A stretch of 62,135 bases of DNA from Verrucomicrobiota bacterium (GCA_041181065.1 JBEGQI010000116.1:1-62135), one strand, 5' to 3'; counted from the first letter of the stretch, positions 16,368 through 50,164 are shown. The notes: a model not told the origin generated them from the sequence alone. Numbers and translations are program-made.

Positions 16368-16370
16368 GAT

Positions 16371-16450: not shown

Positions 16451-16459
16451 GTTAGGTTC

Positions 16460-19159: not shown

Positions 19160-19168
19160 GTTCGTTCC

Positions 19169-20335: not shown

Positions 20336-20384
20336 GCCCAACCCAGAAGCAAAGCCGCGAATTCGTTACAGGAAAAAGTAAGCG

Positions 20385-28186: not shown

Positions 28187-28225
28187 TATAAAAATCGGTG
28201 ATTACTCCAACGACCGCAGGTCAAA

Positions 28226-29047
28226 TCAGCGCCGCCAGCCGCCATACAGCGCGCCAGGCTTCGCATCCTCGGCCGAATACACGGAATCCTTGGACTTTGT
28301 GGCGCACACCACCACGGTATGAGCCCACGAAGGGAAGTAAGTCGCTAGCCAGGACCAATACTCGCCGATCACCGGCAGGTAAAACGCACTTCCCAGAGCC
28401 TTGGAAAAGCTGAAGCCGTTATTGTTCAAAACCATTTTGATGGTTTTAAGCGTGAAGTCGCGGTAGTGCGGCGCACGGTAACGCGCGGCATACATCGGCG
28501 GAAGGTCGAAGATTAGCAACATGCCGATGCCAAGGGCGGTGCGGACGTTCGGGTAAGTTAGCACTAAGGTGCCGCCGGGCTTCAGCACCCGATTGATTTC
28601 TGCCATGAGCCAGTCAGTGTCCACTTGATGCTCGATGGTCTCACCACAGAAAACGACGTCAAAGGTCTTGTCCGGATACGGCATCGGGCCGCTTTCCACA
28701 TCGTGGACTACGGCCTTCATGCCGATTTTGTTGGCGCGGGTTACCAACTCCTCGTTGATCTCGACGCCGTGGATTTCGTGCTTGTTTGCGTGGCACGCAA
28801 GCACGGTGCCGTTACCGCAGCCGATATCCAGAATCTTCCTTCCCGTAGGCATCTCGCCTATGAGTTGACGCACCTTCTCGATGCGCGGTCCCTCAAAGAC
28901 GTAGCCCTCATGATAGGCGCCAACGCCGGCAATTCGTTGTTGTTCAGCTGGTGTCATTGTGTTTTGGGCAAATCTGCCCGCGTATTTTGCAAGATAAAGG
29001 ACGAATGCCTTCTTGAAATCAAGCTTCCGTCCGAGTTTGGCTCCCAT
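28226..29047 (-). CDS. Class I SAM-dependent methyltransferase
   Basis: ILDIGCGNG, FDVVFCGETIEH, RVLKPGG; start uncertain. Confidence 0.88.
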   Translation of the reverse strand: MGAKLGRKLDFKKAFVLYLAKYAGRFAQNTMTPAEQQRIAGVGAYHEGYVFEGPRIEKVRQLIGEMPTGRKILDIGCGNGTVLACHANKHEIHGVEINEELVTRANKIGMKAVVHDVESGPMPYPDKTFDVVFCGETIEHQVDTDWLMAEINRVLKPGGTLVLTYPNVRTALGIGMLLIFDLPPMYAARYRAPHYRDFTLKTIKMVLNNNGFSFSKALGSAFYLPVIGEYWSWLATYFPSWAHTVVVCATKSKDSVYSAEDAKPGALYGGWRR

Positions 29048-29142
29048 GGAGGCATTGAGTTCATGGAACAACGCTTGCGCGAGGCAGAACACCAACACAT
29101 AATTACGGCTCCTTTTGGAACTTTGAAAACGCAAACTAAGTT

Positions 29143-30132
<990 letters not shown>

Positions 30133-30152
30133 AGATAAACCGATTTCGACGC

Positions 30153-30182
30153 AGGGCGGACGCGATGGCGTCCGCCCTTTTT
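30153..30182 (+). terminator. Intrinsic terminator after mdh
   Basis: AGGGCGGACGC-GATG-GCGTCCGCCCT followed by a T run. Confidence 0.85.
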
Positions 30183-30537
30183 GTTTGGAGGAACAACAAA
30201 AGGCCCGGGCCAGCACGGGGCCTCAACGACGAGCGACAACGCATGACCCCGGTCGACGCGCAAGGCGCCGACCGGGGCGGGTTGGTGGGGCGGAGAATGC
30301 GGGCGACTTTGAAACTGGACGTGACGTTGGTTTGCATCATGGAGCCTTTCAATTGTGTCGTCCGGTTCAGTAACGGGAGAAGCCGTCACACACCAGGAGG
30401 ATCGGCTTTGCCCTGCATCCGCTAACCGGCGCAGAACCTGCCGAACCGGACTTTGTTCACCGGTTACTTGGGCAAGCCGACAGAAAGGTGTCGGGGAGAA
30501 ATAAAAAAATGTTTCGACCAGGCGCACGACCGAATGC

Positions 30538-31398
30538 TTACGGGGCAAACGGCTTGTTCGGATCGCAGCGGTCGAATTCCTTTTGCCAGTCGCCCGGTTC
30601 AGCGAGCAATCCGCCCACCATGTGCGTGCCCACCGACGGCACTGGAATCCACAACGTGTAGCGACGTCCAAAGAGATGCTGCCGCCAGTTGAACCACCAC
30701 GCGCACGCCAGGCTGTAGCCACGGAATGGAAAGATGAACGGTTGAGTCAGCAACGTCCACGGATTCAAGACATGCTGCTTCGTCAGGCTCAGCCACATGC
30801 CAGCGTCGGTGTTCTTCTTCGCGTAGCTCATCAGCGTCGGCATGGTTTCGATGAGGGTGCCTTTGCGCGCCATGAAGCTGCACACCGTGCCGTTTTGAGT
30901 TTTCCAGACCTGCCCGCCCTCGACCTTGATGCGCTGCTTGTGCAGATGAAAGTCGTGCTTGTAGAAATCGGGATGGTCGTAAGGTGAGCAAAAATCCGCG
31001 TCCGGATGATGCCGCATGAAATCCACCAGCTTGTGGAACGCGCCGGGGTAATACACGTAGTCATCCTCAGCGAGATAAACCAAATCAGAATCTTCCTGCT
31101 GGGAAAGAATCTCCAGTTGCTTGGCGAACGTCGCGCAATTGCCGGCCTTCGGGCAGCGGACAAGCACGAGGTCCTCGGGCGCAAACAATGAAGTGAAGAG
31201 CTCTTCGTATTCCGGCGGGCAGGTGTCGAGGATGGCCCACACTTTCACTTTGAGCGAACCGAGGCCGAGCTTGAAGGAGCGCAGGCACATGCGCGCCAGC
31301 TTGAGTTTATCGTCGGCGTAGATGGGCGGTTTGGCGCGGGAGACGCCCGGATAGATCCGGTAGGCGACGGCCAAATCGTAACGCTTCGATGTGCTCAT
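30538..31398 (-). CDS. Putative GT-A (GT2-like) glycosyltransferase
   Basis: DLVYLAEDDY acidic motif, SPYDHPD.Y; lies in a glycan gene run. Confidence 0.65.
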   Translation of the reverse strand: MSTSKRYDLAVAYRIYPGVSRAKPPIYADDKLKLARMCLRSFKLGLGSLKVKVWAILDTCPPEYEELFTSLFAPEDLVLVRCPKAGNCATFAKQLEILSQQEDSDLVYLAEDDYVYYPGAFHKLVDFMRHHPDADFCSPYDHPDFYKHDFHLHKQRIKVEGGQVWKTQNGTVCSFMARKGTLIETMPTLMSYAKKNTDAGMWLSLTKQHVLNPWTLLTQPFIFPFRGYSLACAWWFNWRQHLFGRRYTLWIPVPSVGTHMVGGLLAEPGDWQKEFDRCDPNKPFAP

Positions 31399-31426
31399 GT
31401 GCGGCAGATGCTACGGGCGCGGGTCA

Positions 31427-31460
31427 AAAAGCGGAAATTGAAAATTGGGAAAGCGGAAGC
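31427..31460. repeat. Short degenerate 7-nt tandem repeat
   Basis: AAAAGCG GAAATTG AAAATTG GGAAAGC GGAAGC in the intergenic space. Confidence 0.45.
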
Positions 31461-31465
31461 ACTAA

Positions 31466-32461
31466 CTACTTCAGTTTCTGGTCTGGCTTCAGGTTCGCCA
31501 CCAGTTTGGCATCGCCCCGATTCATTCGATACGTCCAAACACCCCACGCAGCGCCGAGCACACTGCCGTAACAAGCAGGGATGTGCCAAAGCCAGCGCAC
31601 GTCGCCGTCGCCAAGCAATCCACGCAGCGTGTGCCAAAGCGGGCCGATGATTGAAACGCAATACACGCCCGCCAACCACAACGGCACCGGCGGTTTCTCT
31701 TTCATCCAGTTCACCGGCATGGATTCCTGGACGCGGAGGAAATGCACGGTGGCGCGGCGACGCTTCTGGATGAAGTTCCAGAGCGTCGTGATGTAGTAGT
31801 GATGCACGCCGCGGTCGCGGATGCGCAGCCACTCGCGTTTGCCAGCTCGCATGAGGAACATCGCCACGTGCGTGTCCTGAAATTTTTCGTCCGCCTTGAC
31901 GGATTCGAGGTCTGCCCGGCGAAACAGGAATCCGTTTGCACCCAGTGGATACGAGAATGATCCGTCCGGCAGGGTCCAACGCTCGACCTCTCCATCCCGC
32001 TTGATCAGCCTTGGGTTCACTGCCATCAGCCAGCACAACGGATCGCTGATGTGCAGCAGATGGGTTAGGTATGCGCAAAGCGAAGTCATCTTTGCTGACG
32101 GCGGGTAGTTGGCTTCAACGCCTAGCGCTTGCGCGTTCGCTGCGAGCGCCTGCACCGCTAATTCGAGGTAATCGGGGTGCGTCAGTTCGTTGTCCGCATC
32201 CACGAAGAGGACGTATTCGCCCTTGGCCTGCGCGAGCGCGACGCGCTTGCTCTCCTCCATGTTCTTACTCGCACGGTCATCGATGACGATGGCGCCGAAC
32301 TTTCGACTGATGTCCTGCGTGCCATCCTTTGAGCCGCCGTCCGCGAGCAGAATTTCATAACGGTCGCGCGAATACGTCTGCCGCGTGATGGAACTGAGGC
32401 AGTTTTCTAGCAACGCCGCCGCGTTGAGCGTCGGCATGATGATGCTGACAAAAGGCTGCAT
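31466..32461 (-). CDS. GT2 glycosyltransferase
   Basis: VSIIMPTLN, DGGSKDGT, GEYVLFVDAD. Confidence 0.92.
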   Translation of the reverse strand: MQPFVSIIMPTLNAAALLENCLSSITRQTYSRDRYEILLADGGSKDGTQDISRKFGAIVIDDRASKNMEESKRVALAQAKGEYVLFVDADNELTHPDYLELAVQALAANAQALGVEANYPPSAKMTSLCAYLTHLLHISDPLCWLMAVNPRLIKRDGEVERWTLPDGSFSYPLGANGFLFRRADLESVKADEKFQDTHVAMFLMRAGKREWLRIRDRGVHHYYITTLWNFIQKRRRATVHFLRVQESMPVNWMKEKPPVPLWLAGVYCVSIIGPLWHTLRGLLGDGDVRWLWHIPACYGSVLGAAWGVWTYRMNRGDAKLVANLKPDQKLK

Positions 32462-32468
32462 CGCTCGC

Positions 32469-33212
32469 TCAGGCGGGTTTTCGCGCTTCCATCACGATGG
32501 TTTCATAAACCTTCGCTTCCCAACCGGGGCCGAAGCTCTCGAGGTTCTGGTAGACGGGGTCCGTGCTCTTGCAAACTTCGCAACGAACGACATCCCTGAA
32601 GCCGACGCGTTCAAATGCCAGCTTCAACGTCTGCTCGTCGTAGAGGAATTTGTGCCCCCAATTGCGCACGGCGTTGTTGAGGACGAAGCACTCGTTGTAA
32701 ACGCCGATGTCCGCCAATGAATGATCCACGCAATGCTTGATGTAATGCTTTTGCTCTTCCGTTTGCGGGCGGTTGTAAAGGCTGATGACTTTCATCAAGT
32801 CCGGGCAGGCGATGCGGATCTTGCCACCGGGCTTCAATACGCGAAAGCTCTCGCGCAAAAGATTCTGTCCTTCCTTGAATGTCAGATGCTCAAACAGATG
32901 CTCGGAAAAGACGTAGTCGAACTGTGCGTCGTCGATGGGAAACGGTCGTGTCACATCCAAAAAGCAGGGCGACTTGAAGACCAGCGAGCAATCGGTGTTG
33001 AGCCAGCCTTCCATCAGCTTGAGACCACTGCCGAGCTGCAGTTTTCGGACGGAGTGAGTCGCAACATATTCGCGCACGATGCGGCGGCGGCGAAAAGCCG
33101 TTAGCCCCTTCGCCTTTTGAAGCAGCAACTGAACGACTTTGCCTTGGTTGAAAAGAATCTCGCTCGATTCAGCCTTGGCCGTCAGGCGTTCGTAGATTTT
33201 CTGGAAGCTCAT
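32469..33212 (-). CDS. SAM-dependent methyltransferase
   Basis: LQLGSG, GWLNTD, FDYVFSEHLFEH, RVLKPGG.IRIACPD. Confidence 0.88.
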   Translation of the reverse strand: MSFQKIYERLTAKAESSEILFNQGKVVQLLLQKAKGLTAFRRRRIVREYVATHSVRKLQLGSGLKLMEGWLNTDCSLVFKSPCFLDVTRPFPIDDAQFDYVFSEHLFEHLTFKEGQNLLRESFRVLKPGGKIRIACPDLMKVISLYNRPQTEEQKHYIKHCVDHSLADIGVYNECFVLNNAVRNWGHKFLYDEQTLKLAFERVGFRDVVRCEVCKSTDPVYQNLESFGPGWEAKVYETIVMEARKPA

Positions 33213-33276
33213 GGTGGCAATGGTCGGGCTTTGTAGCGGCTGTGATACGGACGTTCAAGGTGCAAATCGAACGGAA

Positions 33277-34041
33277 CTACTTGCCCGTCGCTGTGGGCTT
33301 CTTGGCTTTTAGAATGAGATAGTGCCCACGATTTGTGAACACGCCCTCCAGCATCTTGCTCAAACCGTCAGGCAGCGGCAGCAAGCTGATGCTGCGCGCC
33401 TCAATATCTACAAAGCCGCTCCAAGCAAACAGCTCCCGCGCTTGCCGGACGGTCAAGATCCGAATGTGACCGGACACGCCGGCGAATGCCGGATGATCAA
33501 TCGGCAACGGCTCGGACGTCGGCTTGTCATAGTGCAAGCCGAGCGGATTGCCGAGGTAGCGTCCACAAGTCTGCATCAGGGAGAACGGTGTGTATCCCAT
33601 GAACAGCGCGAAGCAGTTGAGCCAACTGCACAGATTCTCCGTGGCAATGACTACGGTGCCGCCGGGTTTCAACACCCGGAACGCTTCATCGGCAAACAGT
33701 CGGCAGTTATGCACGTGTTCAATGACCTGCGAGCTGTGAACGACATCAAAGTGATTGCTCTCAAACGGCCAGCGTCCGTTCAGGTCAAATCCGTGCACCT
33801 TGAAACCGCGCGCCTCCGCTTTCTTGACCAACTCCGGTGCGCCTTCCACGCCCACCAGTTCACGCGGCTTATTTTTTATGTATTTGAACAGCATGCTGCC
33901 GTCGCCGCAGCCGACATCGAGCAGGCTGTCCGGGTTCAGGTTGACCGCGGTCATACCTGCCCAATCGTCCGAACGGTTGGCCCCAAGGTGCCGCGACGTG
34001 GCAACGATGCTCTGCAACTTTTTGATGATGAAATTGGCCAT
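33277..34041 (-). CDS. Class I SAM-dependent methyltransferase
   Basis: LLDVGCGDG, FDVVHSSQVIEH, RVLKPGG; start taken at MANFII. Confidence 0.88.
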   Translation of the reverse strand: MANFIIKKLQSIVATSRHLGANRSDDWAGMTAVNLNPDSLLDVGCGDGSMLFKYIKNKPRELVGVEGAPELVKKAEARGFKVHGFDLNGRWPFESNHFDVVHSSQVIEHVHNCRLFADEAFRVLKPGGTVVIATENLCSWLNCFALFMGYTPFSLMQTCGRYLGNPLGLHYDKPTSEPLPIDHPAFAGVSGHIRILTVRQARELFAWSGFVDIEARSISLLPLPDGLSKMLEGVFTNRGHYLILKAKKPTATGK

Positions 34042-34168
34042 GTGAAACGCTCGCCAGTCTGTAACAGGAAGCCACCACCCCTGCAAACCCGAATCCGGAC
34101 GTGCACACCACGACACTGGCAAAAATTCTGGCGAGCCCGTCGCCGCCAGACTAGTTTGGCGACCATTC

Positions 34169-35143
34169 ATGAAGACCTTCTTCATCACCGGCGCCGCCGG
34201 TTTCATCGGCAGCAGCATCGTTGATCGTCTACTAGCCGACGGCAAGACCGTCGTGGGCTGGGATAATTTTTCCACAGGACAGGAACCGTTCGTCGCGAAC
34301 GCGCTGAAGCATCCGAACTTCAATCTCATCCGCGGCGACAATCTGGATCTCGCTGCGCTCAACAAAGCCATGGCTGGCTGCGACACCGTGCTGCATCTCG
34401 CCGCGAACGCCGATGTGCGCTTCGGCCTGAATCATCCGCGAAAGGATCTGGAGCAAAACACGATTGCCACCTTCAACGTCCTCGAAGCGATGCGCGCCAA
34501 CGGCATCAAGCGCATCGCGTTCAGCTCCACGGGCAGCACCTACGGCGAGGCCGAGATCATCCCGACGCCCGAGGACGCGCCGTTCCCCATCCAAACCTCG
34601 CTCTACGCAGCGTCCAAGGTCGCAGGCGAGACGCTCATCCACAGCTACTGCGAAGGTTTCGGTTTCGAGGGTTACATCTTCCGTTTCGTGTCGATTCTTG
34701 GCGAGCGTTATACGCACGGCCACGTCTTCGATTTCTATAAGCAGCTCGCCGAACATCCTGATCATCTCCGCGTGCTCGGCGACGGCACGCAGCGCAAGAG
34801 CTACCTCTACGTCGGCGACTGCGTGAACGCCATCCTGCACGTGATGAACGCCGGCACCGCGCTCAAGGCGAAGCATCGCGTGGAAGTTTACAACCTCGGC
34901 TGCGACGAATACGTGCAGGTCAACGACTCCATCCGTTTCATCTGCGGTGCGCTCGGCCTCAAGCCCAAGCTCGAATACACCGGCGGCAACAAAGGCTGGG
35001 TCGGCGACAATCCGTTCATCTTCCTCGACACGAAAAAAATCCGCGCCACCGGCTGGAAAACGACGCTCACGATTGAACAAGGTATCGTCCGCACGCTCGA
35101 ATGGTTGCAGGCGAACAAGTGGGTTTACGAAACGCGGAAGTAA
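34169..35143 (+). CDS. NAD-dependent nucleotide-sugar epimerase (LmbM-like by context)
   Basis: GAAGFIG, LAANADVR, YAASK extended-SDR motifs. Confidence 0.88.
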   Translation: MKTFFITGAAGFIGSSIVDRLLADGKTVVGWDNFSTGQEPFVANALKHPNFNLIRGDNLDLAALNKAMAGCDTVLHLAANADVRFGLNHPRKDLEQNTIATFNVLEAMRANGIKRIAFSSTGSTYGEAEIIPTPEDAPFPIQTSLYAASKVAGETLIHSYCEGFGFEGYIFRFVSILGERYTHGHVFDFYKQLAEHPDHLRVLGDGTQRKSYLYVGDCVNAILHVMNAGTALKAKHRVEVYNLGCDEYVQVNDSIRFICGALGLKPKLEYTGGNKGWVGDNPFIFLDTKKIRATGWKTTLTIEQGIVRTLEWLQANKWVYETRK

Positions 35144-35151
35144 CTGGAGAT

Positions 35152-35236
35152 TTCTTACTCTTAATCTTACTCCTAATCTTAATCTGCTCCGGCGGAATAA
35201 GGAGATTGAGAGAAAGATTACGATTAAGATTAAGAA
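35152..35236. repeat. Palindromic element built from 6-nt tandem repeats
   Basis: (CTTACT/CTTAAT)n left arm and (AAGATT)n right arm are reverse complements; AT-rich in a GC-rich operon. Confidence 0.8.
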
Positions 35237-35243
35237 CTGACGA

Positions 35244-36512
35244 ATGAACATCACCGTCCTCGGCCTCTGGCATCTTGGCAGCGTCACCGCCGCCTGCTGC
35301 GCGAAACACTTTCGCGTCACCGGGCTCGACTTCGACGCGTCCACCATCGCCAAGCTGAGCAGCGGCAAGGCGCCGTTGTTTGAGCCGGGCTTGGATGATT
35401 TGATTGCTGCCGGGATTACCGCGAAGAGTCTCTCCTTCACCACAGACGCCGCCGCCGCTTGCGCGACTGCCGACATCCTTTGGCTCTGCTACGACACCCC
35501 GGTGAACGAAGATGACGTGTCTGATGTGGATTTCGTCCTCGGCAACTTACGCCGCGCCTTGCCCCATCTGCCCAAGGGCGCCCTCGTGTTGATCTCATCG
35601 CAACTCCCCGTCGGCACGTGCGCGAAGTTGGAAGTGGAGTTCCAGCAATTCCACTTCGCCTGCTCGCCGGAAAATCTGCGCCTTGGCAAAGCCATCGACG
35701 TGTTCTGTCAGGCGGATCGCTTCATCGTCGGCATCCGCGATGACGCCAAGCGCGCGTTGCTCGAAAAACTTTTTGCGCCGTTCACCTCGCAAGTCATCTT
35801 CATGCGCACGGAATCAGCCGAGATGGTGAAGCATGCGCTAAACTCCTTCCTCGCGGTTAGCGTTACGTTCATCAACGAGATCGCCCGCCTCTGCGAACAC
35901 GTTGGCGCCGACGCGAAGGAAGTTTCCGCCGGCCTCAAGAGCGACATCCGCATCGGACCAAAAGCGTATCTCGGACCGGGCGGTCCGTTCGCTGGCGGCA
36001 CACTCGCGCGCGACGTCGTCACGCTGACACAATTGGCGGCGGCCAAGAACGAAGCCGTCACGCTCATCCCCGCCATCAAGCAAAGCAACGACGGCCATCG
36101 CCGCTGGGTGTTCAACCGCCTGCGCTCACGACTTGGCGAACTGCGCGGCAAGACCGTCGCCGTGCTTGGGCTCACTTATAAGACCGGCACCGACACGCTG
36201 CGCCGCAGTTCGGCGGTCGAGTTGTGCGAAGCTTTGCTGAAAGCCGGTTGCGCCGTGCGCGCCTTTGATCCGGTGGTGAAGCGGATGCCAGCGGAACTAG
36301 GCGCGGTGACCCTCGCAAGTTCGGTGGCCGAGGCGATTCGTGGCGTGGATGCGGCGGCAGTTTGCACCGAGTGGCCGGAGTTCCGGCAGGCGAACTGGGC
36401 CGAGGCCGTCGCGGCCATGCACGGGCGCGTCATCGTGGACGCCAACCGATTTCTGGAAAAGGAATTGAAAGGCGCCGCGGGCGTCGAGCATCTTTCCGTC
36501 GGACGCAAATGA
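35244..36512 (+). CDS. UDP-glucose/GDP-mannose dehydrogenase family protein lacking the catalytic Cys (LmbL-like)
   Basis: GLWHLG, DTPV, SPENLR.G, SAEMVK...N, LGLTYK..TD.LR.S; FAGGTLARD replaces FGGSC.PKD. Confidence 0.85.
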   Translation: MNITVLGLWHLGSVTAACCAKHFRVTGLDFDASTIAKLSSGKAPLFEPGLDDLIAAGITAKSLSFTTDAAAACATADILWLCYDTPVNEDDVSDVDFVLGNLRRALPHLPKGALVLISSQLPVGTCAKLEVEFQQFHFACSPENLRLGKAIDVFCQADRFIVGIRDDAKRALLEKLFAPFTSQVIFMRTESAEMVKHALNSFLAVSVTFINEIARLCEHVGADAKEVSAGLKSDIRIGPKAYLGPGGPFAGGTLARDVVTLTQLAAAKNEAVTLIPAIKQSNDGHRRWVFNRLRSRLGELRGKTVAVLGLTYKTGTDTLRRSSAVELCEALLKAGCAVRAFDPVVKRMPAELGAVTLASSVAEAIRGVDAAAVCTEWPEFRQANWAEAVAAMHGRVIVDANRFLEKELKGAAGVEHLSVGRK

Positions 36513-36594
36513 AGACACGAATTCCACGAATTAACACTAATTCCAGAGTGGCGCTGGCTTACTTCATTCGTGAGAATTCGTGCAATTCGTGTCT
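36513..36594. repeat. Palindromic element with ~9-10 nt periodic arms
   Basis: AGACACGAATT...AATTCGTGTCT IR with three CACGAATT-like units per arm, filling the intergenic gap exactly. Confidence 0.85.
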
Positions 36595-37458
36595 ATGAAA
36601 CTCAAAGGTCTCAACGCCCTTATCACCGGCGGCAGTCAGGGCCTCGGCAAATCCATCGCCGAGCATTATCTCCGCGAGGGCGCGAATGTTGTCCTCTGCG
36701 CGCGCAACGCCAAGGAACTCGCCGCCACGCGCGACGAACTCGCCAAGCTCGCGGGTGCCGGCCAGAAAGTTCTCGCCAAGTCCTGCGACGTTTCCTCCGA
36801 GGCGCAAGTCAACGAACTGGTCGCCTACACGCTCGCTGAGCTTGGCTCGCTGCACGCCCTCGTGTTGAACGCCGGCGTTTACGGCCCGATGGGCCCGACC
36901 GAATCGGTGGACCTCGCCGAGTGGCGACGCGCCATCGACATCAATCTCTTCGGGGTGCTTCTGCCGTGTCGTGCGGTGATGCCGCACTTCAAACAGGCCA
37001 AGCGCGGCAAGATCGTTATCCTCAGCGGTGGCGGTGCGACGAACCCGTTGCCAAACATCAGCTCCTATGCCGCGTCCAAGGCTGCGGTCGTGCGCTTGAT
37101 GGAAACGCTCGCTGAGGAATTGAAGGCGTTCAACGTGGACGTGAATGCCATCGCACCCGGTGCGCTCGCGACCCGTCTCGTGGACGAAGTTCTCGCCGCC
37201 GGACCGGATAAAGTCGGCGCCGCATTTTTCGAGAAGAACAAGCAGTGGAAAGAAAAGGGCGCGACGCCACTGCATCTGGGCGCAGGTCTCGCAGTGTATC
37301 TTGCGAGCGCGGAAAGCAACGGCATCACCGGTCGGCTCATCAGTGCGCAGTGGGATCCGTGGGCCACGCTGCACACGCATCGCGAGCAATTGCAGAAGAG
37401 CGACATCTATTGCCTCCGCCGCATCGTGCCCGAGGACCGCGGCCAAAAATGGAGTTGA
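36595..37458 (+). CDS. SDR family oxidoreductase
   Basis: TGGSQGLG, LNAG, YAASK, VNAIAPG. Confidence 0.9.
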   Translation: MKLKGLNALITGGSQGLGKSIAEHYLREGANVVLCARNAKELAATRDELAKLAGAGQKVLAKSCDVSSEAQVNELVAYTLAELGSLHALVLNAGVYGPMGPTESVDLAEWRRAIDINLFGVLLPCRAVMPHFKQAKRGKIVILSGGGATNPLPNISSYAASKAAVVRLMETLAEELKAFNVDVNAIAPGALATRLVDEVLAAGPDKVGAAFFEKNKQWKEKGATPLHLGAGLAVYLASAESNGITGRLISAQWDPWATLHTHREQLQKSDIYCLRRIVPEDRGQKWS

Positions 37459-37462
37459 ATCA

Positions 37463-38443
37463 ATGAGCTTTCGCGTTGCCATGATCGGTTGCGGCCTCAT
37501 CGGCCAGAAGCGGTTGAACAACCTGCCGCCCGGTAGCGTGACCGTGGCGTGCGACTTGAATCTCGACCGCGCCAAGAAGCTCGCTGCACAAAGCCTCGGC
37601 TGCATCGCGACGGATTCCGTCGAGCAAGCTGTGACTTCGTCGAATGTGGACGTGGTGATGATCGCCACGCTGAATTCCACGCTCGCCCCCGTCGCCATGC
37701 AAGCGGTGCAAGCGGGCAAGCATGTCCTCGTCGAAAAGCCGGCAGGCATCACGGTGGCGGAACTGGAAAAGCTGCAGGCGCTCGCCGCCAAGCACGGCGT
37801 GCTGGTTCGCACGGGCTACAATCACCGTTATCACCCGGCGTGCTTGAAGGCGTTGGAGATTTTCCACAGCGGCGCGCTTGGGCCGATGATGTTTGTGCGC
37901 GGTCGCTACGGTCAGGGCGGGCGCATCGGTTACGATAAGGAATGGCGCGCGGACCCGAAGCTTTCCGGCGGCGGCGAACTAATTGACCAAGGCGTCCATC
38001 TCATCGACCTCGCGGGCATTTTCCTTGGCGAGTTCACGACGGTTGAAGGCCACGTGGCAACTTACTTCTGGAACATGCCCGTGGACGACAACGCGTTTCT
38101 CAGCCTGCGCAACGCCATCGGCAACACCGCTTGGTTGCAGGTCAGTTGTTCTGAGTGGAAGAACATGTTCAGCCTCGAAATCTACGGGCGCGACGGGAAG
38201 CTGCATTGGGAAGGCCTCGGCGGCAGCTACGGCCTGGAGCGGCTCACCTACTACAAGATGCTCCCGCAGATGGGCCCGCCCGAAACGACCGTGTGGGAAT
38301 TCCCACGAGGCGACGAATCATGGAAGATCGAGATGGCGGAGTTCGCCGAGGACATCCGGCTCAAACGCACGCCGGTGCCGGGATTGAAGGAAGCCATTGC
38401 GGCGCTCGTCGTCGTCGAAAAGATTTACGGTAAACGCAAATAA
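37463..38443 (+). CDS. Gfo/Idh/MocA oxidoreductase (LmbZ-like by context)
   Basis: IGCGLIG, GKHVLVEKP, GGGELIDQGVH. Confidence 0.9.
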   Translation: MSFRVAMIGCGLIGQKRLNNLPPGSVTVACDLNLDRAKKLAAQSLGCIATDSVEQAVTSSNVDVVMIATLNSTLAPVAMQAVQAGKHVLVEKPAGITVAELEKLQALAAKHGVLVRTGYNHRYHPACLKALEIFHSGALGPMMFVRGRYGQGGRIGYDKEWRADPKLSGGGELIDQGVHLIDLAGIFLGEFTTVEGHVATYFWNMPVDDNAFLSLRNAIGNTAWLQVSCSEWKNMFSLEIYGRDGKLHWEGLGGSYGLERLTYYKMLPQMGPPETTVWEFPRGDESWKIEMAEFAEDIRLKRTPVPGLKEAIAALVVVEKIYGKRK

Positions 38444-38454
38444 CGGAATCGAAC

Positions 38455-39435
38455 ATGATCATCGCGCGTTCCCCACTTCGCATTAGCCTTGGCGGCGGCG
38501 GCACGGATTTGCCGTCGTATTACGAGCAGCACACTGGCTTCCTTATCGCGGCAGCCATCGACAAATATGTCTACATCACGCTGCACGACACTTTCGTCGC
38601 CGACTTGATCGTGAAGTATTCCAAGCTCGAACGCGTGCCGGACGCGGGTCGGTTGGAACATCCCATCATCCGCGAGGCGATGGCGTTGCTGGGGATCAAG
38701 GGCCAGTCCATGGAACTCACTTCGATGGCGGACATCCCCGCCGGCACGGGGCTGGGTTCCTCGGGCAGCTTCACCACGGCGCTGCTCAAGGCGCTGCATG
38801 CATGGAAAAAGAATCTCGTTCACCCCGCCGAACTCGCCGAGCAGGCGTGCGACATCGAGTTGAACCGGCTGCATGAACCCATCGGCAAGCAGGATCAATA
38901 CATCGCGGCTTACGGCGGCATCACGTGCTTCAAGTTCCTGCCCGGCGGTAAGGTCGAGGCGTGGCCGTTAAAGATTTCCGAGGAGACGCTCTACAATCTT
39001 GAGGACAACCTGCTGCTGTTCTTCACGGGTTACTCGCGTTCGGCGTCAGCGATCCTCAAGGAGCAGGACTCGAAGAGCAAAGCCGCCGATTCCTCGATGA
39101 TCGAGAATCTGCATTTCGTGAAGGACCTCGGTTTCCAGAGTCAGCGCGCGCTGGAGACGGGTAACCTGAACGAGTTCGCGCGGCTGATGGACGTGCATTG
39201 GCAGCGGAAGAAGGAACGCTCCGGCGGTATGAGCAACGCGAAGATCAACGAGTGGTATGACCTCGCGATGGCGAACGGCGCGCTCGGCGGAAAGCTCATC
39301 GGCGCGGGTGGCGGCGGCTTCCTGATGTTCTATGCCGACGACAAGACGAAGCTGCGTCACGCGATGCGCGGCGCGGGCCTGAAGGAAGTGCGCTTCCGCT
39401 TCGACTTCGAGGGGACCAAGCTGCTGAACTCGTGA
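38455..39435 (+). CDS. hddA: GHMP sugar-phosphate kinase (HddA/LmbP-like)
   Basis: PLRISLGGGGTD, P.GTGLGSS, GKQDQY, GGKLIGAGGGGF. Confidence 0.85.
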   Translation: MIIARSPLRISLGGGGTDLPSYYEQHTGFLIAAAIDKYVYITLHDTFVADLIVKYSKLERVPDAGRLEHPIIREAMALLGIKGQSMELTSMADIPAGTGLGSSGSFTTALLKALHAWKKNLVHPAELAEQACDIELNRLHEPIGKQDQYIAAYGGITCFKFLPGGKVEAWPLKISEETLYNLEDNLLLFFTGYSRSASAILKEQDSKSKAADSSMIENLHFVKDLGFQSQRALETGNLNEFARLMDVHWQRKKERSGGMSNAKINEWYDLAMANGALGGKLIGAGGGGFLMFYADDKTKLRHAMRGAGLKEVRFRFDFEGTKLLNS

Positions 39436-39487
39436 GCGCGCGAATCAAACGCCAGAATTGTAATTGTTCCCAATTGCCAGCGACGGC

Positions 39488-39931
39488 ATGAATGGCGCCG
39501 TGAAAAAATCATTCGTCCGTTTGCACTGGGTTGTTGTTCTCGTTCTGAGCGTCGTGGTTTGTGTTTCGCAGAGCGCTGAAAAGGATTCAACGACCAACGC
39601 TCCCGCTCCGGCAGTATGCGCTTCCTGTCACGGCACGCAGAAGTGCAAGCAGTGCAAGGGTTCTGGTCAGACGGAATGCCAGAGCTGCAAGGGCACAGGA
39701 AAAGAACGGGAACGTTGCACACGCTGCGGCGGTAGCGGGCGCATCTCAGAAACTAAGACGACTCGCTCTTTCGGAGTGACCCGCCGATCAACGACCTCGA
39801 GGTCCTGCACCAATTGTAGCGGGAGGGGTTATCGGGAGAAAAACTGCAACCAGTGCGGCGGTGACGGAAAAGTGACCTGCACCAAATGCAAGGGCCACAA
39901 AGAATGTCCCGTTTGCAAACCCAAGACTTGA
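39488..39931 (+). CDS. Secreted or membrane-anchored Cys-rich protein with DnaJ-type CxxCxGxG zinc-finger repeats
   Basis: Hydrophobic N-terminus, eight CxxC motifs, no J domain; stop overlaps the next ATG (TGATG). Confidence 0.75.
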   Translation: MNGAVKKSFVRLHWVVVLVLSVVVCVSQSAEKDSTTNAPAPAVCASCHGTQKCKQCKGSGQTECQSCKGTGKERERCTRCGGSGRISETKTTRSFGVTRRSTTSRSCTNCSGRGYREKNCNQCGGDGKVTCTKCKGHKECPVCKPKT

Positions 39932-40641
39932 TGAACCTGTCGAACATTCCCGTAGCGCTCCTCGCCGGCGGCCTCGCCACACGACTCCGGCCCATCACCG
40001 AGAAAGTCCCAAAGGTGCTGGTGCCCGTTGCGGGCAAGCCGTTCCTTGCGCACCAGCTTGAACTGCTGCACGGGCAGGGAATCCGCCGTGTGGTGCTGTG
40101 CCTCGGGCATCTCGGCGAAATGGTCGTGCAAGAGTTCGGCGACGGCGCCGCGTATGACATGCAGCTCGAATACTCCTTCGACGGCCCCAAGCTTCTGGGC
40201 ACGGGCGGGGCGTTGCGGCAGGCGTTGCCGAAGCTCGGGCGCGAGTTCTTCGTGCTCTACGGCGATTCGTATCTGACCTGCCCGTTCGCGCCCATCGCGG
40301 AGTTCTTTGAGCGCAGCGGCAAGGCGGGTTTGATGACGGTGTATCGCAATGAAGGGCTTTACGACACGAGCAACGTTGTCTTCCGCGATGGGGAGATCGC
40401 CGTTTACGACAAGAAGGTGAAGCTGCCCGAGATGCGGCACATTGATTACGGCTTGAGCCTGTTTCGCGCCGATGTGTTCGAGAAATATCCCGCCGATGAG
40501 AAGTTCGATCTCGCCGATGTGATGACGAAGCTCGTCACGGAGAAACAGCTCGCGGGATACGAAGTGCCGGAGCGGTTTTACGAAATCGGCTCGCACGACG
40601 GGCTGGCGGAATTGGAAGGCTTGTTAAGCAAGCGCGCTTGA
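39931..40641 (+). CDS. Sugar-1-phosphate nucleotidyltransferase (HddC/LmbO-like)
   Basis: LLAGGLATRL.P, PK.L..V.G.PF, LGTGGAL, YGDSY, FYEIG. Confidence 0.88.
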   Translation: MNLSNIPVALLAGGLATRLRPITEKVPKVLVPVAGKPFLAHQLELLHGQGIRRVVLCLGHLGEMVVQEFGDGAAYDMQLEYSFDGPKLLGTGGALRQALPKLGREFFVLYGDSYLTCPFAPIAEFFERSGKAGLMTVYRNEGLYDTSNVVFRDGEIAVYDKKVKLPEMRHIDYGLSLFRADVFEKYPADEKFDLADVMTKLVTEKQLAGYEVPERFYEIGSHDGLAELEGLLSKRA

Positions 40642-40692
40642 ATCAACAATTTCGGGCTTCAACTCGGGCGGCGTCCCGTGTTTCATCTGGGC

Positions 40693-41289
40693 ATGACATT
40701 CGCCCAGCAGTTTCTCAACGAAGTCCAGCAGGTCACGGCCAAAATCGACGCCAACGCCATCGAGAAGATGGTGGATGCTCTCGCCGCCGTGCGCGAACGC
40801 GGCGGGCGTTTGTTCATCCTCGGCGTCGGCGGCAGCGCGGGCAACGCGGGCCACGCCGTGAATGATTTCCGCAAGATCTGCGGCTTCGAAGCCTACGCGC
40901 CGACGGACAACGTCTCCGAACTCACCGCGCGCACCAATGACGAAGGCTGGGCGACGATCTTCGCCGAATGGCTCAAGGGCAGTCGCATCAGCGCGAAGGA
41001 CGGCCTGCTCATCTTCTCCGTTGGCGGTGGTAACCTGGAAAAGAATGTCAGCCCGAATCTCGTCAGCGCGATCCAAGTCGCCAAGCAAGTCGGCGCAACC
41101 GTCACCGGCATCGTGGGCCGCGACGGCGGTTACACGGCGAAGGAAGCCAATGCCTGCGTCATCGTGCCCACGGTGAATCCCGACCACGTCACGCCGCACT
41201 CGGAGGCGTTTCAAGCCGTCGTGTGGCACCTGTTCGTCTCGCATCCCAAGCTCAAGGCGAAGGCCACGAAGTGGGAAAGCACGAAGTGA
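40693..41289 (+). CDS. SIS-domain phosphosugar isomerase (GmhA/LmbN-like)
   Basis: GVGGSAGNAGH...D, TARTND, SPNLV.A, HSE.FQ..VWH. Confidence 0.85.
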   Translation: MTFAQQFLNEVQQVTAKIDANAIEKMVDALAAVRERGGRLFILGVGGSAGNAGHAVNDFRKICGFEAYAPTDNVSELTARTNDEGWATIFAEWLKGSRISAKDGLLIFSVGGGNLEKNVSPNLVSAIQVAKQVGATVTGIVGRDGGYTAKEANACVIVPTVNPDHVTPHSEAFQAVVWHLFVSHPKLKAKATKWESTK

Positions 41290-41834
41290 AGCGCGCTGTC
41301 TTTCTTGATCGCGATGGCGTAATCAATCGCGCCCTTGAGCGCGACGGCAAACCGTATCCGCCCACGAGTCTGGCTGAGTTTGAAATCCTTCCCGGCGTGG
41401 CCGAGGCTTGCGCTAAGTTGAAGCACGCCGGGTTTCTTCTCGTCGTCGCCACCAATCAACCTGATGTCGGCCGCGGCACGCTGGCGCAGTCGGTCGTTGA
41501 TTCGATTCACGCGCACATGGCGAAGGTTCTGCCGATCGACCGCGTGGAAGTGTGTTTTCATCCGGGCAAAGGCGCATCGGACTGCGATTGTCGCAAGCCG
41601 AAGCCCGGCATGTTGCTGCGCGCCGCCCGCGAACTGGGCATCGACCTCGCGCAAAGCTGGATGGTCGGTGACCGTTGGCGCGACGTGGATTGCGGGCATG
41701 CTGCCGGTTGCCGGACGGTGTTCATTGATTACAGTTACGATGAAGTGCTGCGGCAGAAGCCAGACTACAAAGTGAAGAATCTGGCCGAGGCGGCGGAAGT
41801 CATCCTTGACGCCACCAAAGCTTCCGGCGTTTGA
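41286..41834 (+). CDS. gmhB: HAD bisphosphate phosphatase (GmhB/LmbK-like)
   Basis: FLDRDGVIN, TNQ, CDCRKPKPGM, MVGDR..D; GTG start overlaps the upstream stop. Confidence 0.88.
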   Translation: MKRAVFLDRDGVINRALERDGKPYPPTSLAEFEILPGVAEACAKLKHAGFLLVVATNQPDVGRGTLAQSVVDSIHAHMAKVLPIDRVEVCFHPGKGASDCDCRKPKPGMLLRAARELGIDLAQSWMVGDRWRDVDCGHAAGCRTVFIDYSYDEVLRQKPDYKVKNLAEAAEVILDATKASGV

Positions 41835-41858
41835 TGACGGCCAACAATTCACCAATTT

Positions 41859-42581
41859 ATGTCCAAATCCCTCAAAGACCTCAAAGTCCACATCTACGCT
41901 GACGGCGCCGACAAGGCGGGCATGCTCAGCCTTTACGCGAACCCGCTCATCAAAGGTTTGACCACCAACCCGTCGCTGATGAAGAAGGCGGGCATCACGG
42001 ATTTCGAGGCGTTCGCCAAGGACATCCTCCAAACGATCAAGGACAAGCCGATCTCGCTCGAAGTCTTCACCGACGACCTCACCGAAATGAAGCGGCAGGC
42101 GTTGAAGATCACCAAGTGGGCACCGAATGTTTACACCAAGATTCCGATCACCAACAATCAGGGCGTTTCCTGTCTGCCCCTCATCAAGGAACTCGCGGCG
42201 TCCGGCGTGAAGCTCAACATCACCGCGTTGCTCACGCTTGAACAAGTCGTGGGCGTCGAAGCCGCGCTCACTAAGGACGTGCCGAGCGTGGTGTCCGTTT
42301 TCGCCGGCCGCATCGCTGACACCGGCGTGGACCCGATGCCGATGATGCGCGCGTGCAGCGCCATTCTCGCAAATCAACCCAAGGCCGAATTGCTCTGGGC
42401 CAGCGTGCGCGAAGTGTTGAACATCTTCCAAGCCGATGAGTGCGGCTGCAAGATCGTCACGGTGCCGCATGACATTCTGGCCAAGGCCATCAAGATGGTG
42501 GGCACGGATTTGACGGCCCTCTCGCTGGACACGGTAAAGATGTTCTCTGCGGATGCGCAGGCGGCGGGTTACAAACTTTGA
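41859..42581 (+). CDS. Transaldolase family protein (LmbR-like by context)
   Basis: YADGAD, TTNPSL, YTKIP, SVFAGR..D, LWASVR. Confidence 0.88.
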   Translation: MSKSLKDLKVHIYADGADKAGMLSLYANPLIKGLTTNPSLMKKAGITDFEAFAKDILQTIKDKPISLEVFTDDLTEMKRQALKITKWAPNVYTKIPITNNQGVSCLPLIKELAASGVKLNITALLTLEQVVGVEAALTKDVPSVVSVFAGRIADTGVDPMPMMRACSAILANQPKAELLWASVREVLNIFQADECGCKIVTVPHDILAKAIKMVGTDLTALSLDTVKMFSADAQAAGYKL

Positions 42582-42600: not shown

Positions 42601-42630
42601 AAACGCGCGGGGTGCAAACTCCGCGCGTTT
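42601..42630. terminator. Bidirectional terminator between convergent operons
   Basis: AAACGCGCGGGG-TGCAAA-CTCCGCGCGTTT hairpin. Confidence 0.75.
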
Positions 42631-43721
42631 TACTTTTGGTCGAGCACTTCAAGGACGGCGGTGAGCACATCGTCCACTTTCACCGCTTCCATGATCCGGC
42701 GCAGTTCCTCTTCGGTGCCACGGATGCCTTTGCCGTCGTAGCGGTAGTAATCCAGGTTGCGACCGTGCACCGCCGGGTTCTTCACCAACCGGTATGGGCG
42801 GCCGTAGGGTTCCAGCGTCGGGCCGAACGCCATGGATTCGATCAACACCTGCTTGGGAACCTTCATCGCGGCGGCAAAGTGCATCATGGCGTTGTCTACG
42901 CTCAGGAAGACTTCGCAGTGCTTCATCAACGCAGCAGCTTCGCGGATGCTGCGCGTCTTGGGCGCGATGAGATTCGGATGCGCGGCTTCGGCGAGGATGC
43001 GGGCGTTCTCCTCTTTTTCTTCGGGTCCGCCGAACAGAACGACAGTCACACCAGGTCGCGCAGATGTGAGCTTCTTGATGACGCCGATGAAATTCTCCAC
43101 GGGCCAGCGCTTCATGCGCAGGTTCTTCGTCTTGCCCGAGCCAACGTGAATGCCGACCACGCGTCGTCCGGCGAGCTTGTTCTCGTCCGCGATGCGTTGG
43201 GCAGTCTCGATTTCTTCCGTCGTCAGGAACAATTCATACGCACGCTCCTTGGGCGTCACATTTTTCCCGAGCAACGAGAGCAACTGCAGATTGTTGTCCG
43301 CCGAATGGATATCGTAATCCTGCGGCAAGCTGCGCGTGATGAGGAGTTCGTCGAGGAAGTTTGAGTTGTCGTAGGTGTGGCTGAGCCGTTGCTTTGCGCC
43401 GATGATGCGGGCGACCACGCGGTATTCGATCTTGCTCTGCGGATGCGTATTGATCGAAACGTCGTAACGCTCCTTGCGCAGGCCGAACATGAACTTCAAG
43501 AACGCCGGCGCGCCGACTTCGAAGGAATTGCACTGGTGCACGCGGCGCAAATGCGGGTTGCCTGCCAGTAAATCACGCGAGGCGGCCCAGAACACCAGCG
43601 CGTCGATCTCGGCGCCGGGATAGCACGCGCGCAATTCACGGAGCAGCGGCGTGGCGATGAGCGCGTCGCCGATGCCCGCGAGCGCGATGACGAGGATTTT
43701 TTTGGGTTCCGACTTCGACAC
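42630..43721 (-). CDS. GT9 (heptosyltransferase-like) glycosyltransferase
   Basis: IGDALIATP, KRWP.E.F, SVDNAMMHFAAA. Confidence 0.88.
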   Translation of the reverse strand: MSKSEPKKILVIALAGIGDALIATPLLRELRACYPGAEIDALVFWAASRDLLAGNPHLRRVHQCNSFEVGAPAFLKFMFGLRKERYDVSINTHPQSKIEYRVVARIIGAKQRLSHTYDNSNFLDELLITRSLPQDYDIHSADNNLQLLSLLGKNVTPKERAYELFLTTEEIETAQRIADENKLAGRRVVGIHVGSGKTKNLRMKRWPVENFIGVIKKLTSARPGVTVVLFGGPEEKEENARILAEAAHPNLIAPKTRSIREAAALMKHCEVFLSVDNAMMHFAAAMKVPKQVLIESMAFGPTLEPYGRPYRLVKNPAVHGRNLDYYRYDGKGIRGTEEELRRIMEAVKVDDVLTAVLEVLDQK

Positions 43722-43729
43722 AGTTGACG

Positions 43730-44215
43730 TCAGAGCTTGGCGATCTTCGCCAGGATCGAGGTGGTCGAGCGTCCGGGCACGACCGGCAGGATGACAATCT
43801 TGCCGCCCACCGACTCCACGAGGCGACGCTCATCCTGATTGAGCGTGTCAATCGTGTAATCGCCGCCCTTCACATAGATGTCGGGCTGGGCGCGCTCCAA
43901 GAAGCGCAGCGCGGTCTTCTCGGCGTAGATGCAAACAGCCGAAACACTTTCCACCGAGGCCAGCACCAGCGCGCGGTCGGTTTCCTGATTCACCGGGCGG
44001 CTGTCGCCCTTGAGTTCACGCACGCTGGCATCGCTGTTCACGCCGACGAGCAGCGCATCGCCTTCGCGACGCGCGCATTCGAGATACGTCACGTGGCCGA
44101 GGTGCAGCAGGTCAAAGCAGCCGTTCGTGACGACGAGCCGCCGGCCGGTCTTGCGAAAGCTCTCCCGCCACTGCGGCAGATTTTCCCAAGTGATGAGTTT
44201 CTCCCGGAAGTTCAC
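43730..44215 (-). CDS. rfaE2: Heptose 1-phosphate adenylyltransferase (standalone HldE domain II)
   Basis: TNGCFDLLHLGH, VGVNSDASV..LKG..RP, VKGGDY, STT. Confidence 0.9.
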   Translation of the reverse strand: MNFREKLITWENLPQWRESFRKTGRRLVVTNGCFDLLHLGHVTYLECARREGDALLVGVNSDASVRELKGDSRPVNQETDRALVLASVESVSAVCIYAEKTALRFLERAQPDIYVKGGDYTIDTLNQDERRLVESVGGKIVILPVVPGRSTTSILAKIAKL

Positions 44216-47578: not shown

Positions 47579-47600
47579 GGGTTAAATATGAAAAGAACTA

Positions 47601-47841
47601 TTAACCACGGATGGACACAGATGAACACGGATGCGAAGCCCAACGGGCTTCAACATGAATAGCCGTGGGTGCCAACCCACGGAACCAGCACCACGAAAAT
47701 GTCCCCGGCCCTGAAGGGGCTAAACAATGTTCAATCTGTTGCCACAACCAAAGGGGCGACCCCTTCAGGGTCAAATGAATGATTGGCGCGCGTGCCCGTG
47801 GGTTGCACCCACGGCTATTCATATTTGTCCCCTTCGGGGAC
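47601..47841. repeat. Composite repeat: periodic half-element plus nested palindromic REP/MITE-like element
   Basis: TTAACCACGGATGGACACAGATGAACACGGAT, then IR 47655-47682 / 47796-47822, inner IR 47707-47719 / 47760-47772 and terminal hairpins. Confidence 0.8.
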
Positions 47842-47913
47842 GAAGTGCTTGGCTCAAGCCGAGCAGGAAAACGAGATGAGGTTTTTGATGTTCCGCTCAT
47901 CACACCCACCTCG

Positions 47914-50157: not shown

Positions 50158-50164
50158 GTGTGTC

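Follow-up and report, generated by a model that had tools for sequence, protein, structure and literature searches.

A conserved sugar-nucleotide cassette with its own transaldolase in a verrucomicrobial glycan locus, a candidate lincosamide-type octose pathway

Which sugar is made by a run of ten closely packed, co-directional genes at positions 34169-42581 on the plus strand of a contig from a Verrucomicrobiota bacterium (GCA_041181065.1, JBEGQI010000116.1:1-62135), which encode a transaldolase side by side with enzymes for the activation and redox tailoring of a sugar? The whole stretch of DNA that was analysed, 62,135 nucleotides in length, is referred to here as the window; it is contig C116 of an assembly of 3.97 Mb that is 93% complete (genome G000), and the closest named relatives of its proteins come from Verrucomicrobia and from metagenome-assembled genomes (MAGs) of Limisphaerales. 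The answer has two parts of different strength. Nine of the ten genes belong to a cassette that recurs in many phyla in an arrangement far beyond chance, and its synteny, co-inheritance and gene fusions make it one functional unit. The product of this unit is best explained as a nucleoside diphosphate (NDP)-octose of the lincosamide type, which would be tailored by oxidation and reduction and used in an envelope glycan, a reading to which we give moderate probability. The genes, designated g1 to g10, and the hairpin behind them are the following:

34169..35143, plus strand: g1, extended short-chain dehydrogenase/reductase (SDR), NAD-dependent sugar-nucleotide epimerase of the LmbM family (PF01370, 168.8 bits; YxxxK motif)
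35244..36512, plus strand: g2, NAD dehydrogenase with the fold of UDP-glucose dehydrogenase (UGDH), catalytic Cys lost, LmbL family (three UDPG_MGDP_dh domains)
36580..37458, plus strand: g3, classical SDR, presumed ketoreductase (adh_short, 184.5 bits; TGxxxGxG and YxxxK motifs)
37463..38443, plus strand: g4, Gfo/Idh/MocA NAD(P) oxidoreductase, LmbZ/CcbZ family (PF01408, PF22725, PF02894)
38455..39435, plus strand: g5, GHMP-family anomeric sugar kinase, LmbP/HddA family (GHMP_kinases_N and C)
39488..39931, plus strand: g6, small secreted Cys-rich protein with CxxCxGxG repeats (translation; signal peptide)
39931..40641, plus strand: g7, sugar-1-phosphate nucleotidyltransferase, LmbO/HddC family (PF00483, NTP_transferase)
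40678..41289, plus strand: g8, divergent SIS ketose-phosphate isomerase, family of the LmbN isomerase domain and GmhA (SIS_2)
41223..41834, plus strand: g9, HAD-IIIA sugar-bisphosphate phosphatase, LmbK/GmhB family (sub-cut-off GmhB matches)
41859..42581, plus strand: g10, short (type 3B-like) transaldolase of 240 amino acids, role of LmbR (TIGR02134, 314.2 bits against a cut-off of 281.95)
42601..42630, no strand: hairpin of terminator type where the transaldolase and GT9 genes converge (13 pairs, eight of them G-C, then a T-run)

The original prediction had placed nine enzyme families on one strand within these limits, and all nine are recovered there by Pfam and NCBIfam, while the tenth open reading frame, g6, had been overlooked. 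To judge by its layout the run is one operon, with g4 most likely starting at M107 of a longer open reading frame, i.e. at 37463, four bases past the stop of g3, and with the hairpin as a terminator-like close after the transaldolase gene, in a scan that overall found 11 such sites against 13.7 expected from shuffles, i.e. no excess. The top NCBIfam matches of g1, GalE and RmlB, are far under their cut-offs, and g1 lacks the dehydratase D-E pair. The small g6 protein (147 amino acids, with five or six CxxC/CxxCxGxG zinc-finger-like repeats of the DnaJ type) has a stop codon that overlaps the start of g7 as TGATG; it matches the Pfam model DnaJ_CXXCXGXG weakly (26.6 bits, under the cut-off), gave zero tblastn matches in the related loci searched, and looks like an insertion specific to this genome whose membership in the pathway is doubtful.

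That the other nine genes belong together is apparent from their recurrence. With a profile built on an alignment of ten transaldolases, contigs of one genome per species were searched, and the 80 most similar of 583 transaldolase relatives were taken as the set of loci, a non-random sample for which taxon labels are those of the sequence records; orthology thresholds, i.e. identity and coverage for the loci and an E-value for the genomes of relatives, were of our own choosing. Near the transaldolase gene, the SIS isomerase gene is found in 64 of the 80 loci, the HAD phosphatase gene, as its direct neighbour, in 63, the kinase gene in 49 and the nucleotidyltransferase gene in 48. Among the tailoring genes, the Gfo gene is the one most often linked to it (26 of 80), followed by those for the epimerase (20), the SDR (16) and the UGDH-like protein (14). 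For the 39 loci that extend 8 kb or more to both sides, the numbers are 36 for SIS, 32 for HAD, 30 for the kinase and 26 for the nucleotidyltransferase, and 16, 13, 9 and 7, respectively, for the Gfo, epimerase, SDR and UGDH-like genes. The full nine-gene set lies near the transaldolase in 11 of the 80 loci, nine of which keep the gene order of the window over a span of about 7.7 kb, and eight of the genes are present in five further loci; in most complete loci the SDR gene sits between the UGDH-like and Gfo genes. By record, the nine-gene loci belong to Opitutaceae and other Verrucomicrobia, a gammaproteobacterium, a Bradyrhizobium MAG, Rhodospirillaceae, a Pelagibacteraceae single-cell genome, a deltaproteobacterium and Methylococcales, to which the eight-gene loci add Thermoanaerobaculia, Elusimicrobia and Polyangiales. 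Altogether, the cassette ranges over Verrucomicrobiota, Pseudomonadota, Acidobacteriota, Planctomycetota, Elusimicrobiota, candidate phyla, rhizobial plasmids and Lawsonia. Plasmid pRCCGE525c of Rhizobium jaguaris CCGE525 carries the nine genes in window order with 50-71% identity, and plasmid 3 of Lawsonia intracellularis (NC_008014.1, 10937-31638; locus L113) carries all nine families under generic RefSeq names. In the latter species, an intracellular pig pathogen, an LPG_synthase_TM-like gene and genes for two hypothetical proteins, each about 1090 amino acids long, are interspersed among those of the cassette.

Members of the cassette are also joined into single proteins. The SIS subfamily comprises 460 representatives at E <= 1e-30, and among 20 that were checked for fusions seven were fused to HAD, two to NTP_transferase and one (P0200) to a transaldolase of the g10 family; because this last fusion exists, the product of the transaldolase is likely to be the substrate of the isomerase. 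Where HAD and transaldolase genes stand next to each other alone, SIS and kinase orthologs are present elsewhere in the genome in five of five cases, and four of five loci with a lone transaldolase gene, including that of Chthoniobacter flavus Ellin428, have the SIS ortholog elsewhere in the genome. The tailoring set is modular. Many Opitutaceae loci have the Gfo gene alone, the UGDH-like gene is lacking in Rhodoblastus and in a Legionellales MAG, and a gene for a DegT aminotransferase lies inside or beside the cassette in four variants (L049, L038, L099 and L100), in the first of which (37-10741) the genes run from epimerase, SDR and DegT through Gfo, kinase and transferase to SIS, HAD and transaldolase, again without the UGDH-like gene. 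A further form, which we call the type-B cassette (L021, L073, L085), combines SIS, HAD and transaldolase genes with two epimerases, an HldE-like kinase/adenylyltransferase, a Gfo protein and a dehydrogenase that is an Asn variant of g2.

Inheritance within the order of the host shows the same cohesion. Among 40 relatives of this order, many of them incomplete MAGs in which 'not found' may reflect gaps, the transaldolase (found at 55% identity or more, and in addition as one fragment) and the SIS isomerase occur in the identical nine genomes, eight of which have the kinase and six the epimerase (73-89% identity). The UGDH-like, SDR (63-91%) and Gfo (70-89%) genes are present in exactly the same five of the 40 genomes, and all five carry the transaldolase-isomerase pair; neither a kinase nor a SIS ortholog was found without the transaldolase in any of the 40. 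In G018, G020 and G021 the cassette genes are distributed over several contigs and nevertheless retained together. No orthologs of these cassette genes were found in the other 31 relatives, among which are the two further genomes from the genus of G000 (96% and 94% complete). These two congeners (G001, G002) are without the cassette and encode a canonical transaldolase of the long type, and G000 has the cassette and no canonical enzyme that we could find, which may reflect displacement or else a gap in its assembly.

The transaldolase g10 has the Schiff-base lysine K94 (in VKIP or TKIP) and a TTNP motif, both invariant in all ten aligned sequences. As a general explanation, a mere housekeeping function of this enzyme was rejected, G000 itself excepted, on account of its patchy distribution and of the long canonical transaldolase that five of the nine cassette-bearing relatives (G017, G018, G021, G024, G033) possess as well; since both enzymes are present in these five, that of the cassette is no stand-in for a missing canonical one there.

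What, then, would a cell do with a transaldolase that is tied to sugar activation? To our knowledge, the lincomycin C8 route is the one biochemical precedent for a series of transaldolase, SIS isomerase, kinase, phosphatase and nucleotidyltransferase. As set out in passages of PMC5854111, LmbR transfers a C3 unit from fructose-6-phosphate or sedoheptulose-7-phosphate to ribose-5-phosphate to give octulose-8-phosphate, which LmbN then isomerizes, and tables in PMC4351081 and PMC12945683 list LmbM as an epimerase, LmbL as a dehydrogenase, LmbZ/CcbZ as an oxidoreductase and LmbS/CcbS as an aminotransferase. By analogy, g10 would move a dihydroxyacetone unit from either of the two donors to ribose-5-phosphate (as LmbR does), g8 would convert the resulting octulose-8-phosphate into the aldose-8-phosphate (LmbN), g5 would phosphorylate C1 (LmbP), g9 would strip off the terminal phosphate (LmbK) and g7 would form the NDP-octose (LmbO). 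With less assurance, we infer that g1, g2 and g4 form a keto intermediate by oxidation, and perhaps dehydration, of the side chain, and that g3 would reduce this intermediate at the point where lincosamide producers transaminate. In a study from 2020, LmbL and CcbZ reportedly carry out a joint 6,8-dehydration to a 6-keto-8-deoxy intermediate, which is followed by transamination.

The parallel with LmbR/N/P/K/O/M/L/Z, first drawn in the original prediction, is real at the level of family membership and gene content: at the family level, the cassette has the transaldolase-SIS pair, the kinase, HAD and nucleotidyltransferase genes and also the epimerase, UGDH-fold and Gfo genes, which are syntenic in 14 of the 80 loci. 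The aminotransferase is indeed missing, with no DegT (PF01041) match on the contig of the window, the three strong matches of the genome lying on contigs C106 and C229 and complete cassettes having no room for such a gene. The further proposal that an SDR takes its place agrees with our data in that the SDR gene is integral to the cassette and matches the UGDH-like and Gfo genes in its phyletic profile. Enzymes assignable to lincosamide producers did not appear in our searches: the PDB matches of g2, g4 and g10 are generic family members with no Lmb sugar enzyme among them; the best 150 of 4730 SIS matches include none that can be named LmbN, the N-extended candidates of 280-313 amino acids being HAD or transferase fusions or fragments; the best 80 of 583 transaldolase loci include none from Streptomyces or an actinomycete producer; and a search from a Streptomyces plasmid transaldolase yielded no LmbR-named protein among the 120 matches listed, which were mostly actinobacterial and metagenomic. 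The transaldolase on plasmid p3211-1 of Streptomyces sp. 3211 (47% identity) was considered as part of a lincosamide cluster and rejected, its neighbours being different. At that locus (L111, 17468-21427) it lies with an MFS transporter, a D-arabinono-1,4-lactone oxidase, an HxpB-like phosphatase and many transposases, a different use of the enzyme. In the literature searched, in which full-text coverage leaves out most subscription journals, the cassette was not found described outside lincosamide clusters.

Among the tailoring proteins, g2 scores 306 bits with TIGR03026, 265 bits with TuaD and 248 bits with the structure 3gg2, its orthologs carry the database name UDP-glucose 6-dehydrogenase, and an ESM Atlas look-up returned generic UGDH-family clusters alone. 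In HMMER alignments, Thr254 of g2 takes the position of the Cys nucleophile of 3gg2, 4a7p and 2y0e, and the K196/N200/D257 equivalents are retained. The motif GGTL(A/L/P)RD, with Thr for Cys, is present in 17 of 17 cassette copies, and the type-B dehydrogenases have GGNLERD, with Asn at the Cys position, in five of five; the cysteine is kept by a housekeeping paralog on contig C244 of G000 (GGSCFPKD) and by two non-cassette homologs (GGSC). A Cys-bearing UGDH paralog, about 30% identical to g2, is found in this genome and in most relatives. The GGxCxxKD cysteine by which four-electron UDP-glucose/GDP-mannose 6-dehydrogenases are recognized is thus absent from g2, and an ordinary UGDH is ruled out by its loss in every cassette copy; because Thr replaces the catalytic Cys, g2 would not be a uronic-acid synthase. 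An enzyme without this thiol is expected to perform a two-electron oxidation of an alcohol and not the four-electron formation of a uronic acid, and the loss agrees with a partner of the LmbL type that acts as a two-electron dehydrogenase.

How far the analogy extends to the final product is a separate matter, and a specific 8-deoxy product, i.e. NDP-8-deoxy-octose, is plausible yet less likely than not in our estimation. From chemical reasoning, a dehydration of the 6,8 type needs an exocyclic chain of three carbons, which a heptose does not have. The DegT variants are in line with a keto intermediate open to either reduction or amination, and they do not indicate the carbon position.

Several points weigh against an octose pathway or parts of it. 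Gfo enzymes also oxidize ring hydroxyls, so that the product need not be 8-deoxy, and the nearest solved chains of g4 belong to dehydrogenases of sugars and inositol and to a sugar 3-ketoreductase, with WbpB-like chains among its PDB matches as well. The tailoring set is variable, i.e. a two-enzyme dehydration of the LmbL/LmbZ type is not obligatory. The likeness to Lmb enzymes, as judged from sequence, is one of families and not of measured orthology. The sequences also leave the acceptor of g10 unfixed, and with erythrose-4-phosphate the enzyme would deliver sedoheptulose-7-phosphate and hence a heptose route. The g10 family occurs in other contexts, e.g. on a Streptomyces plasmid and in Staphylococcus and lactobacillus plasmid copies of 47-52% identity, and in G000, G004 and G020 no TAL_FSA gene besides that of the cassette was found, so that its enzyme may also serve the pentose-phosphate pathway there. 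A gene of the GT9 heptosyltransferase family immediately adjoins the cassette. Finally, the literature that we searched yielded no linear octose from any bacterial glycan, while heptoses are well known there.

The strongest alternative is a modified NDP-heptose, for which the transaldolase would supply sedoheptulose-7-phosphate, GmhA/HddA/GmhB/HddC-like enzymes would activate it, and the four redox enzymes would epimerize or oxidize the product; we consider it unlikely, yet worth weighing in detail. The best named models for g5, g8, g9 and g7 are indeed those of heptose enzymes, and the scores are throughout under the cut-offs: g5 reaches 172.7 bits with HddA (NF049969, cut-off 600), g8 45.8 bits with GmhA (TIGR00441, cut-off 209.45), g9 131.4 against 178 and 91.8 against 149.6 with the two GmhB models, and g7 87.3 against 300 with HddC, 112 against 250 with MurU and 87.6 against 440 with mannose-1-phosphate guanylyltransferase. 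The earlier statement that this is no plain GDP-heptose set is in line with these sub-equivalog scores, by which the activation enzymes are distinct from the standard heptose enzymes; two GmhA-like paralogs in the same genome score 172-186 bits where g8 has its 45.8. One of these GmhA-like paralogs (L103, contig C320, 1756-4810) adjoins a gene for an HK97-type prohead protease/major capsid fusion and may be prophage-borne. The genome has separate genes for ADP-heptose, i.e. a GmhA-like gene, a GmhB-like gene adjoining kdsB, a gene for an RfaE domain-I kinase whose score exceeds the cut-off, and an RfaE-II gene, which are placed on contigs C98, C106 or C320, and C235, and in the window next to the cassette:

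42630..43721, minus strand: gene of the GT9 heptosyltransferase family (PF01075)
43730..44215, minus strand: RfaE domain-II heptose-1-phosphate adenylyltransferase (TIGR02199, 181.2 bits against a cut-off of 181.5)

The same RfaE-II and GT9 pair adjoins the transaldolase gene in seven more verrucomicrobial loci (L028, L030, L042, L045, L046, L048, L053), which favours a heptose. The upstream gene being RfaE-II, the pair probably belongs to the ADP-heptose pathway of the lipopolysaccharide (LPS) core and stands outside the cassette, and the suggestion in the original prediction that neighbouring glycosyltransferases use the cassette product probably does not hold for GT9, nor are the methyltransferases and further transferases nearby conserved with the cassette. 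A heptose would also agree with the HldE-like enzyme of the type-B cassette, as in the ADP-heptose route, and with the three genomes in which no second transaldolase was found. On the other side, sedoheptulose-7-phosphate is available from transketolase anyway, and ADP-heptose genes of the order occur without the cassette transaldolase: RfaE-I is present in 38 of 41 genomes, with or without a cassette, and the cassette transaldolase in 10 of 41, counting G000. More than half of the cassette-bearing relatives (five of nine) already have a canonical enzyme, and the transaldolase is never missing where the isomerase and the kinase are present, which argues for a product other than sedoheptulose-7-phosphate. 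Known heptose routes, moreover, employ extended-SDR dehydratases and reductases; the known routes to 6-deoxyheptoses in particular lead via extended-SDR 4,6-dehydratases and not via a UGDH-like protein paired with a Gfo enzyme.

Transaldolases accept several aldose phosphates, and since the sequences do not fix the acceptor, the enzyme might instead extend, e.g., a hexose-6-phosphate to a nonulose-9-phosphate; the product could then be a sugar other than C8, or it could be a soluble metabolite instead of part of a surface glycan, in keeping with flanking transferases that are not conserved with the cassette. We regard this as improbable, given that the single known precedent for the enzyme series is the lincomycin C8 route (in passages of PMC5854111 and PMC4351081) and that cassettes in several phyla sit among GT2, GT4, Wzz, initiating-transferase and YfhO/TMEM260-like genes. 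The notion of two unrelated modules placed side by side, i.e. an epimerase and UGDH of the UDP-glucuronate type next to a heptose module, is suggested by the Pfam and NCBIfam matches and database names of g2 but is largely refuted, and hardly credible, in view of the replaced cysteine, the separate Cys-bearing paralog and the fact that g1-g4 are confined to genomes with the transaldolase module and syntenic with it across phyla.

If the cassette makes an NDP-octose, where would this sugar go? The genes on the other side of the cassette are variable glycan genes (25448..34386, minus strand apart from one gene; Pfam), which include unassigned open reading frames:

25448-28186, minus strand: YfhO-like membrane protein of 912 amino acids
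28226-29134, minus strand: S-adenosylmethionine (SAM)-dependent methyltransferase
29143-30132, plus strand: malate dehydrogenase
31466-32461, minus strand: glycosyltransferase of family GT2
32469-33212, minus strand: SAM-dependent methyltransferase
33277-34386, minus strand: SAM-dependent methyltransferase

Near the cassette, Pfam also finds GT4, GDP-mannose 4,6-dehydratase and FkbM methyltransferase genes in the window. Only the YfhO-like protein (38% identity in L021 and 31% in L071, by tblastn) and the GT2 protein (52% in L018) have counterparts beside other cassettes, with another YfhO-family protein next to the transaldolase in L038. Beside the cassettes of other phyla lie GT2, SAM methyltransferase, LPG_synthase_TM-like, Wzz and initiating sugar transferase genes and, in several phyla, genes for GT4, YfhO-like, TMEM260-like or unassigned proteins of 530-700 amino acids. 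No transferase or methyltransferase conserved with the cassette was found, the GT2 and methyltransferases of the window being without orthologs beside the cassettes of other phyla, so that the likeness between neighbourhoods is one of families only, as far as sequence comparison goes. A role in a surface glycan is nevertheless likely. The transferases of the variable locus would pass the sugar to an envelope glycan, and a possible route would lead from GT2 via a polyprenyl-phosphate carrier to the large YfhO-type (GT-C-type) membrane transferase, followed by O-methylation.

Two other regions of the window deserve a remark of their own. At 46361-55449, a gene for an alpha-glucan water dikinase-like protein (52411-55449, plus strand; GWD1 phosphohistidine domain, PPDK_N and Ig_N_CWD1) adjoins those for a 727-amino-acid glycogen/starch synthase, GlgB and a GH57 protein, so that a bacterial glycogen cluster here includes a glucan-phosphorylating enzyme of the plant type. 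At 14247-20341 (minus strand), genes for an FHA/HEAT-repeat protein, an ECF-type sigma factor, a protein of 899 amino acids outside any family and a Ser/Thr protein kinase are found.

Should the product indeed be an octose, the transaldolase-based C8 route would not be peculiar to lincosamides but a common route to envelope glycans among bacteria from soil, fresh water, the sea and hosts; it would add a new class of monosaccharides to bacterial glycobiology and provide an evolutionary origin for the lincosamine pathway, and the Cys-less UGDH-fold dehydrogenase, its Gfo partner and the ketoreductase would be enzymes for making octose nucleotides. A broader proposal, which we put forward tentatively but in earnest, is that linear octoses (NDP-8-deoxy-octose, and amino-octoses in the DegT variants) are widespread in envelopes, that the cassette is mobile, and that the sugar half of the lincosamides was recruited from it by a swap of the ketoreductase for an aminotransferase. 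Should the product be a heptose instead, the cassette would represent a new and widely distributed tailoring set for NDP-heptoses. The current names UDP-glucose 6-dehydrogenase, galactokinase, D-sedoheptulose 7-phosphate isomerase and transaldolase obscure the unit, and at least the dehydrogenase is misnamed. Cultured carriers, i.e. Rhizobium jaguaris CCGE525, Rhodoblastus sphagnicola DSM 16996 and Chthoniobacter flavus Ellin428, make these alternatives directly testable.

Seen against known systems, the cassette is closest to the lincosamide sugar pathway of Streptomyces lincolnensis and S. caelestis, with which eight of its nine families match in a comparison by family only; lincosamide clusters likewise encode a dedicated transaldolase within the cluster. 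It differs in that a conserved classical SDR stands where these clusters have the DegT aminotransferase LmbS/CcbS, in that its isomerase and Gfo protein are without a carrier-protein domain and the amino-acid, thiol and resistance genes of the antibiotic cluster are lacking, and in its verrucomicrobial host, its setting in a glycan locus and its spread over many phyla. With the GDP-D-glycero-alpha-D-manno-heptose pathway of S-layer and capsule loci it shares the same four activation families in the same logical order, to which the cassette adds the transaldolase within the operon and the tailoring by Cys-less UGDH-fold, Gfo and classical SDR enzymes. The ADP-L-glycero-beta-D-manno-heptose pathway of LPS cores likewise uses a SIS isomerase and a HAD-IIIA phosphatase, and the type-B cassette has an HldE-like enzyme in common with it; nearly every genome of the order has that pathway, while the distribution of the cassette is patchy. 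At the level of families, the recurrence of GT2 and large membrane proteins recalls three-component periplasmic glycosylation, in which a GT2 enzyme acts with a flippase and a transferase of the GtrC/ArnT/YfhO type, and the pairing of Gfo and DegT genes in the variant cassette L049 resembles that of WbpB and WbpE.

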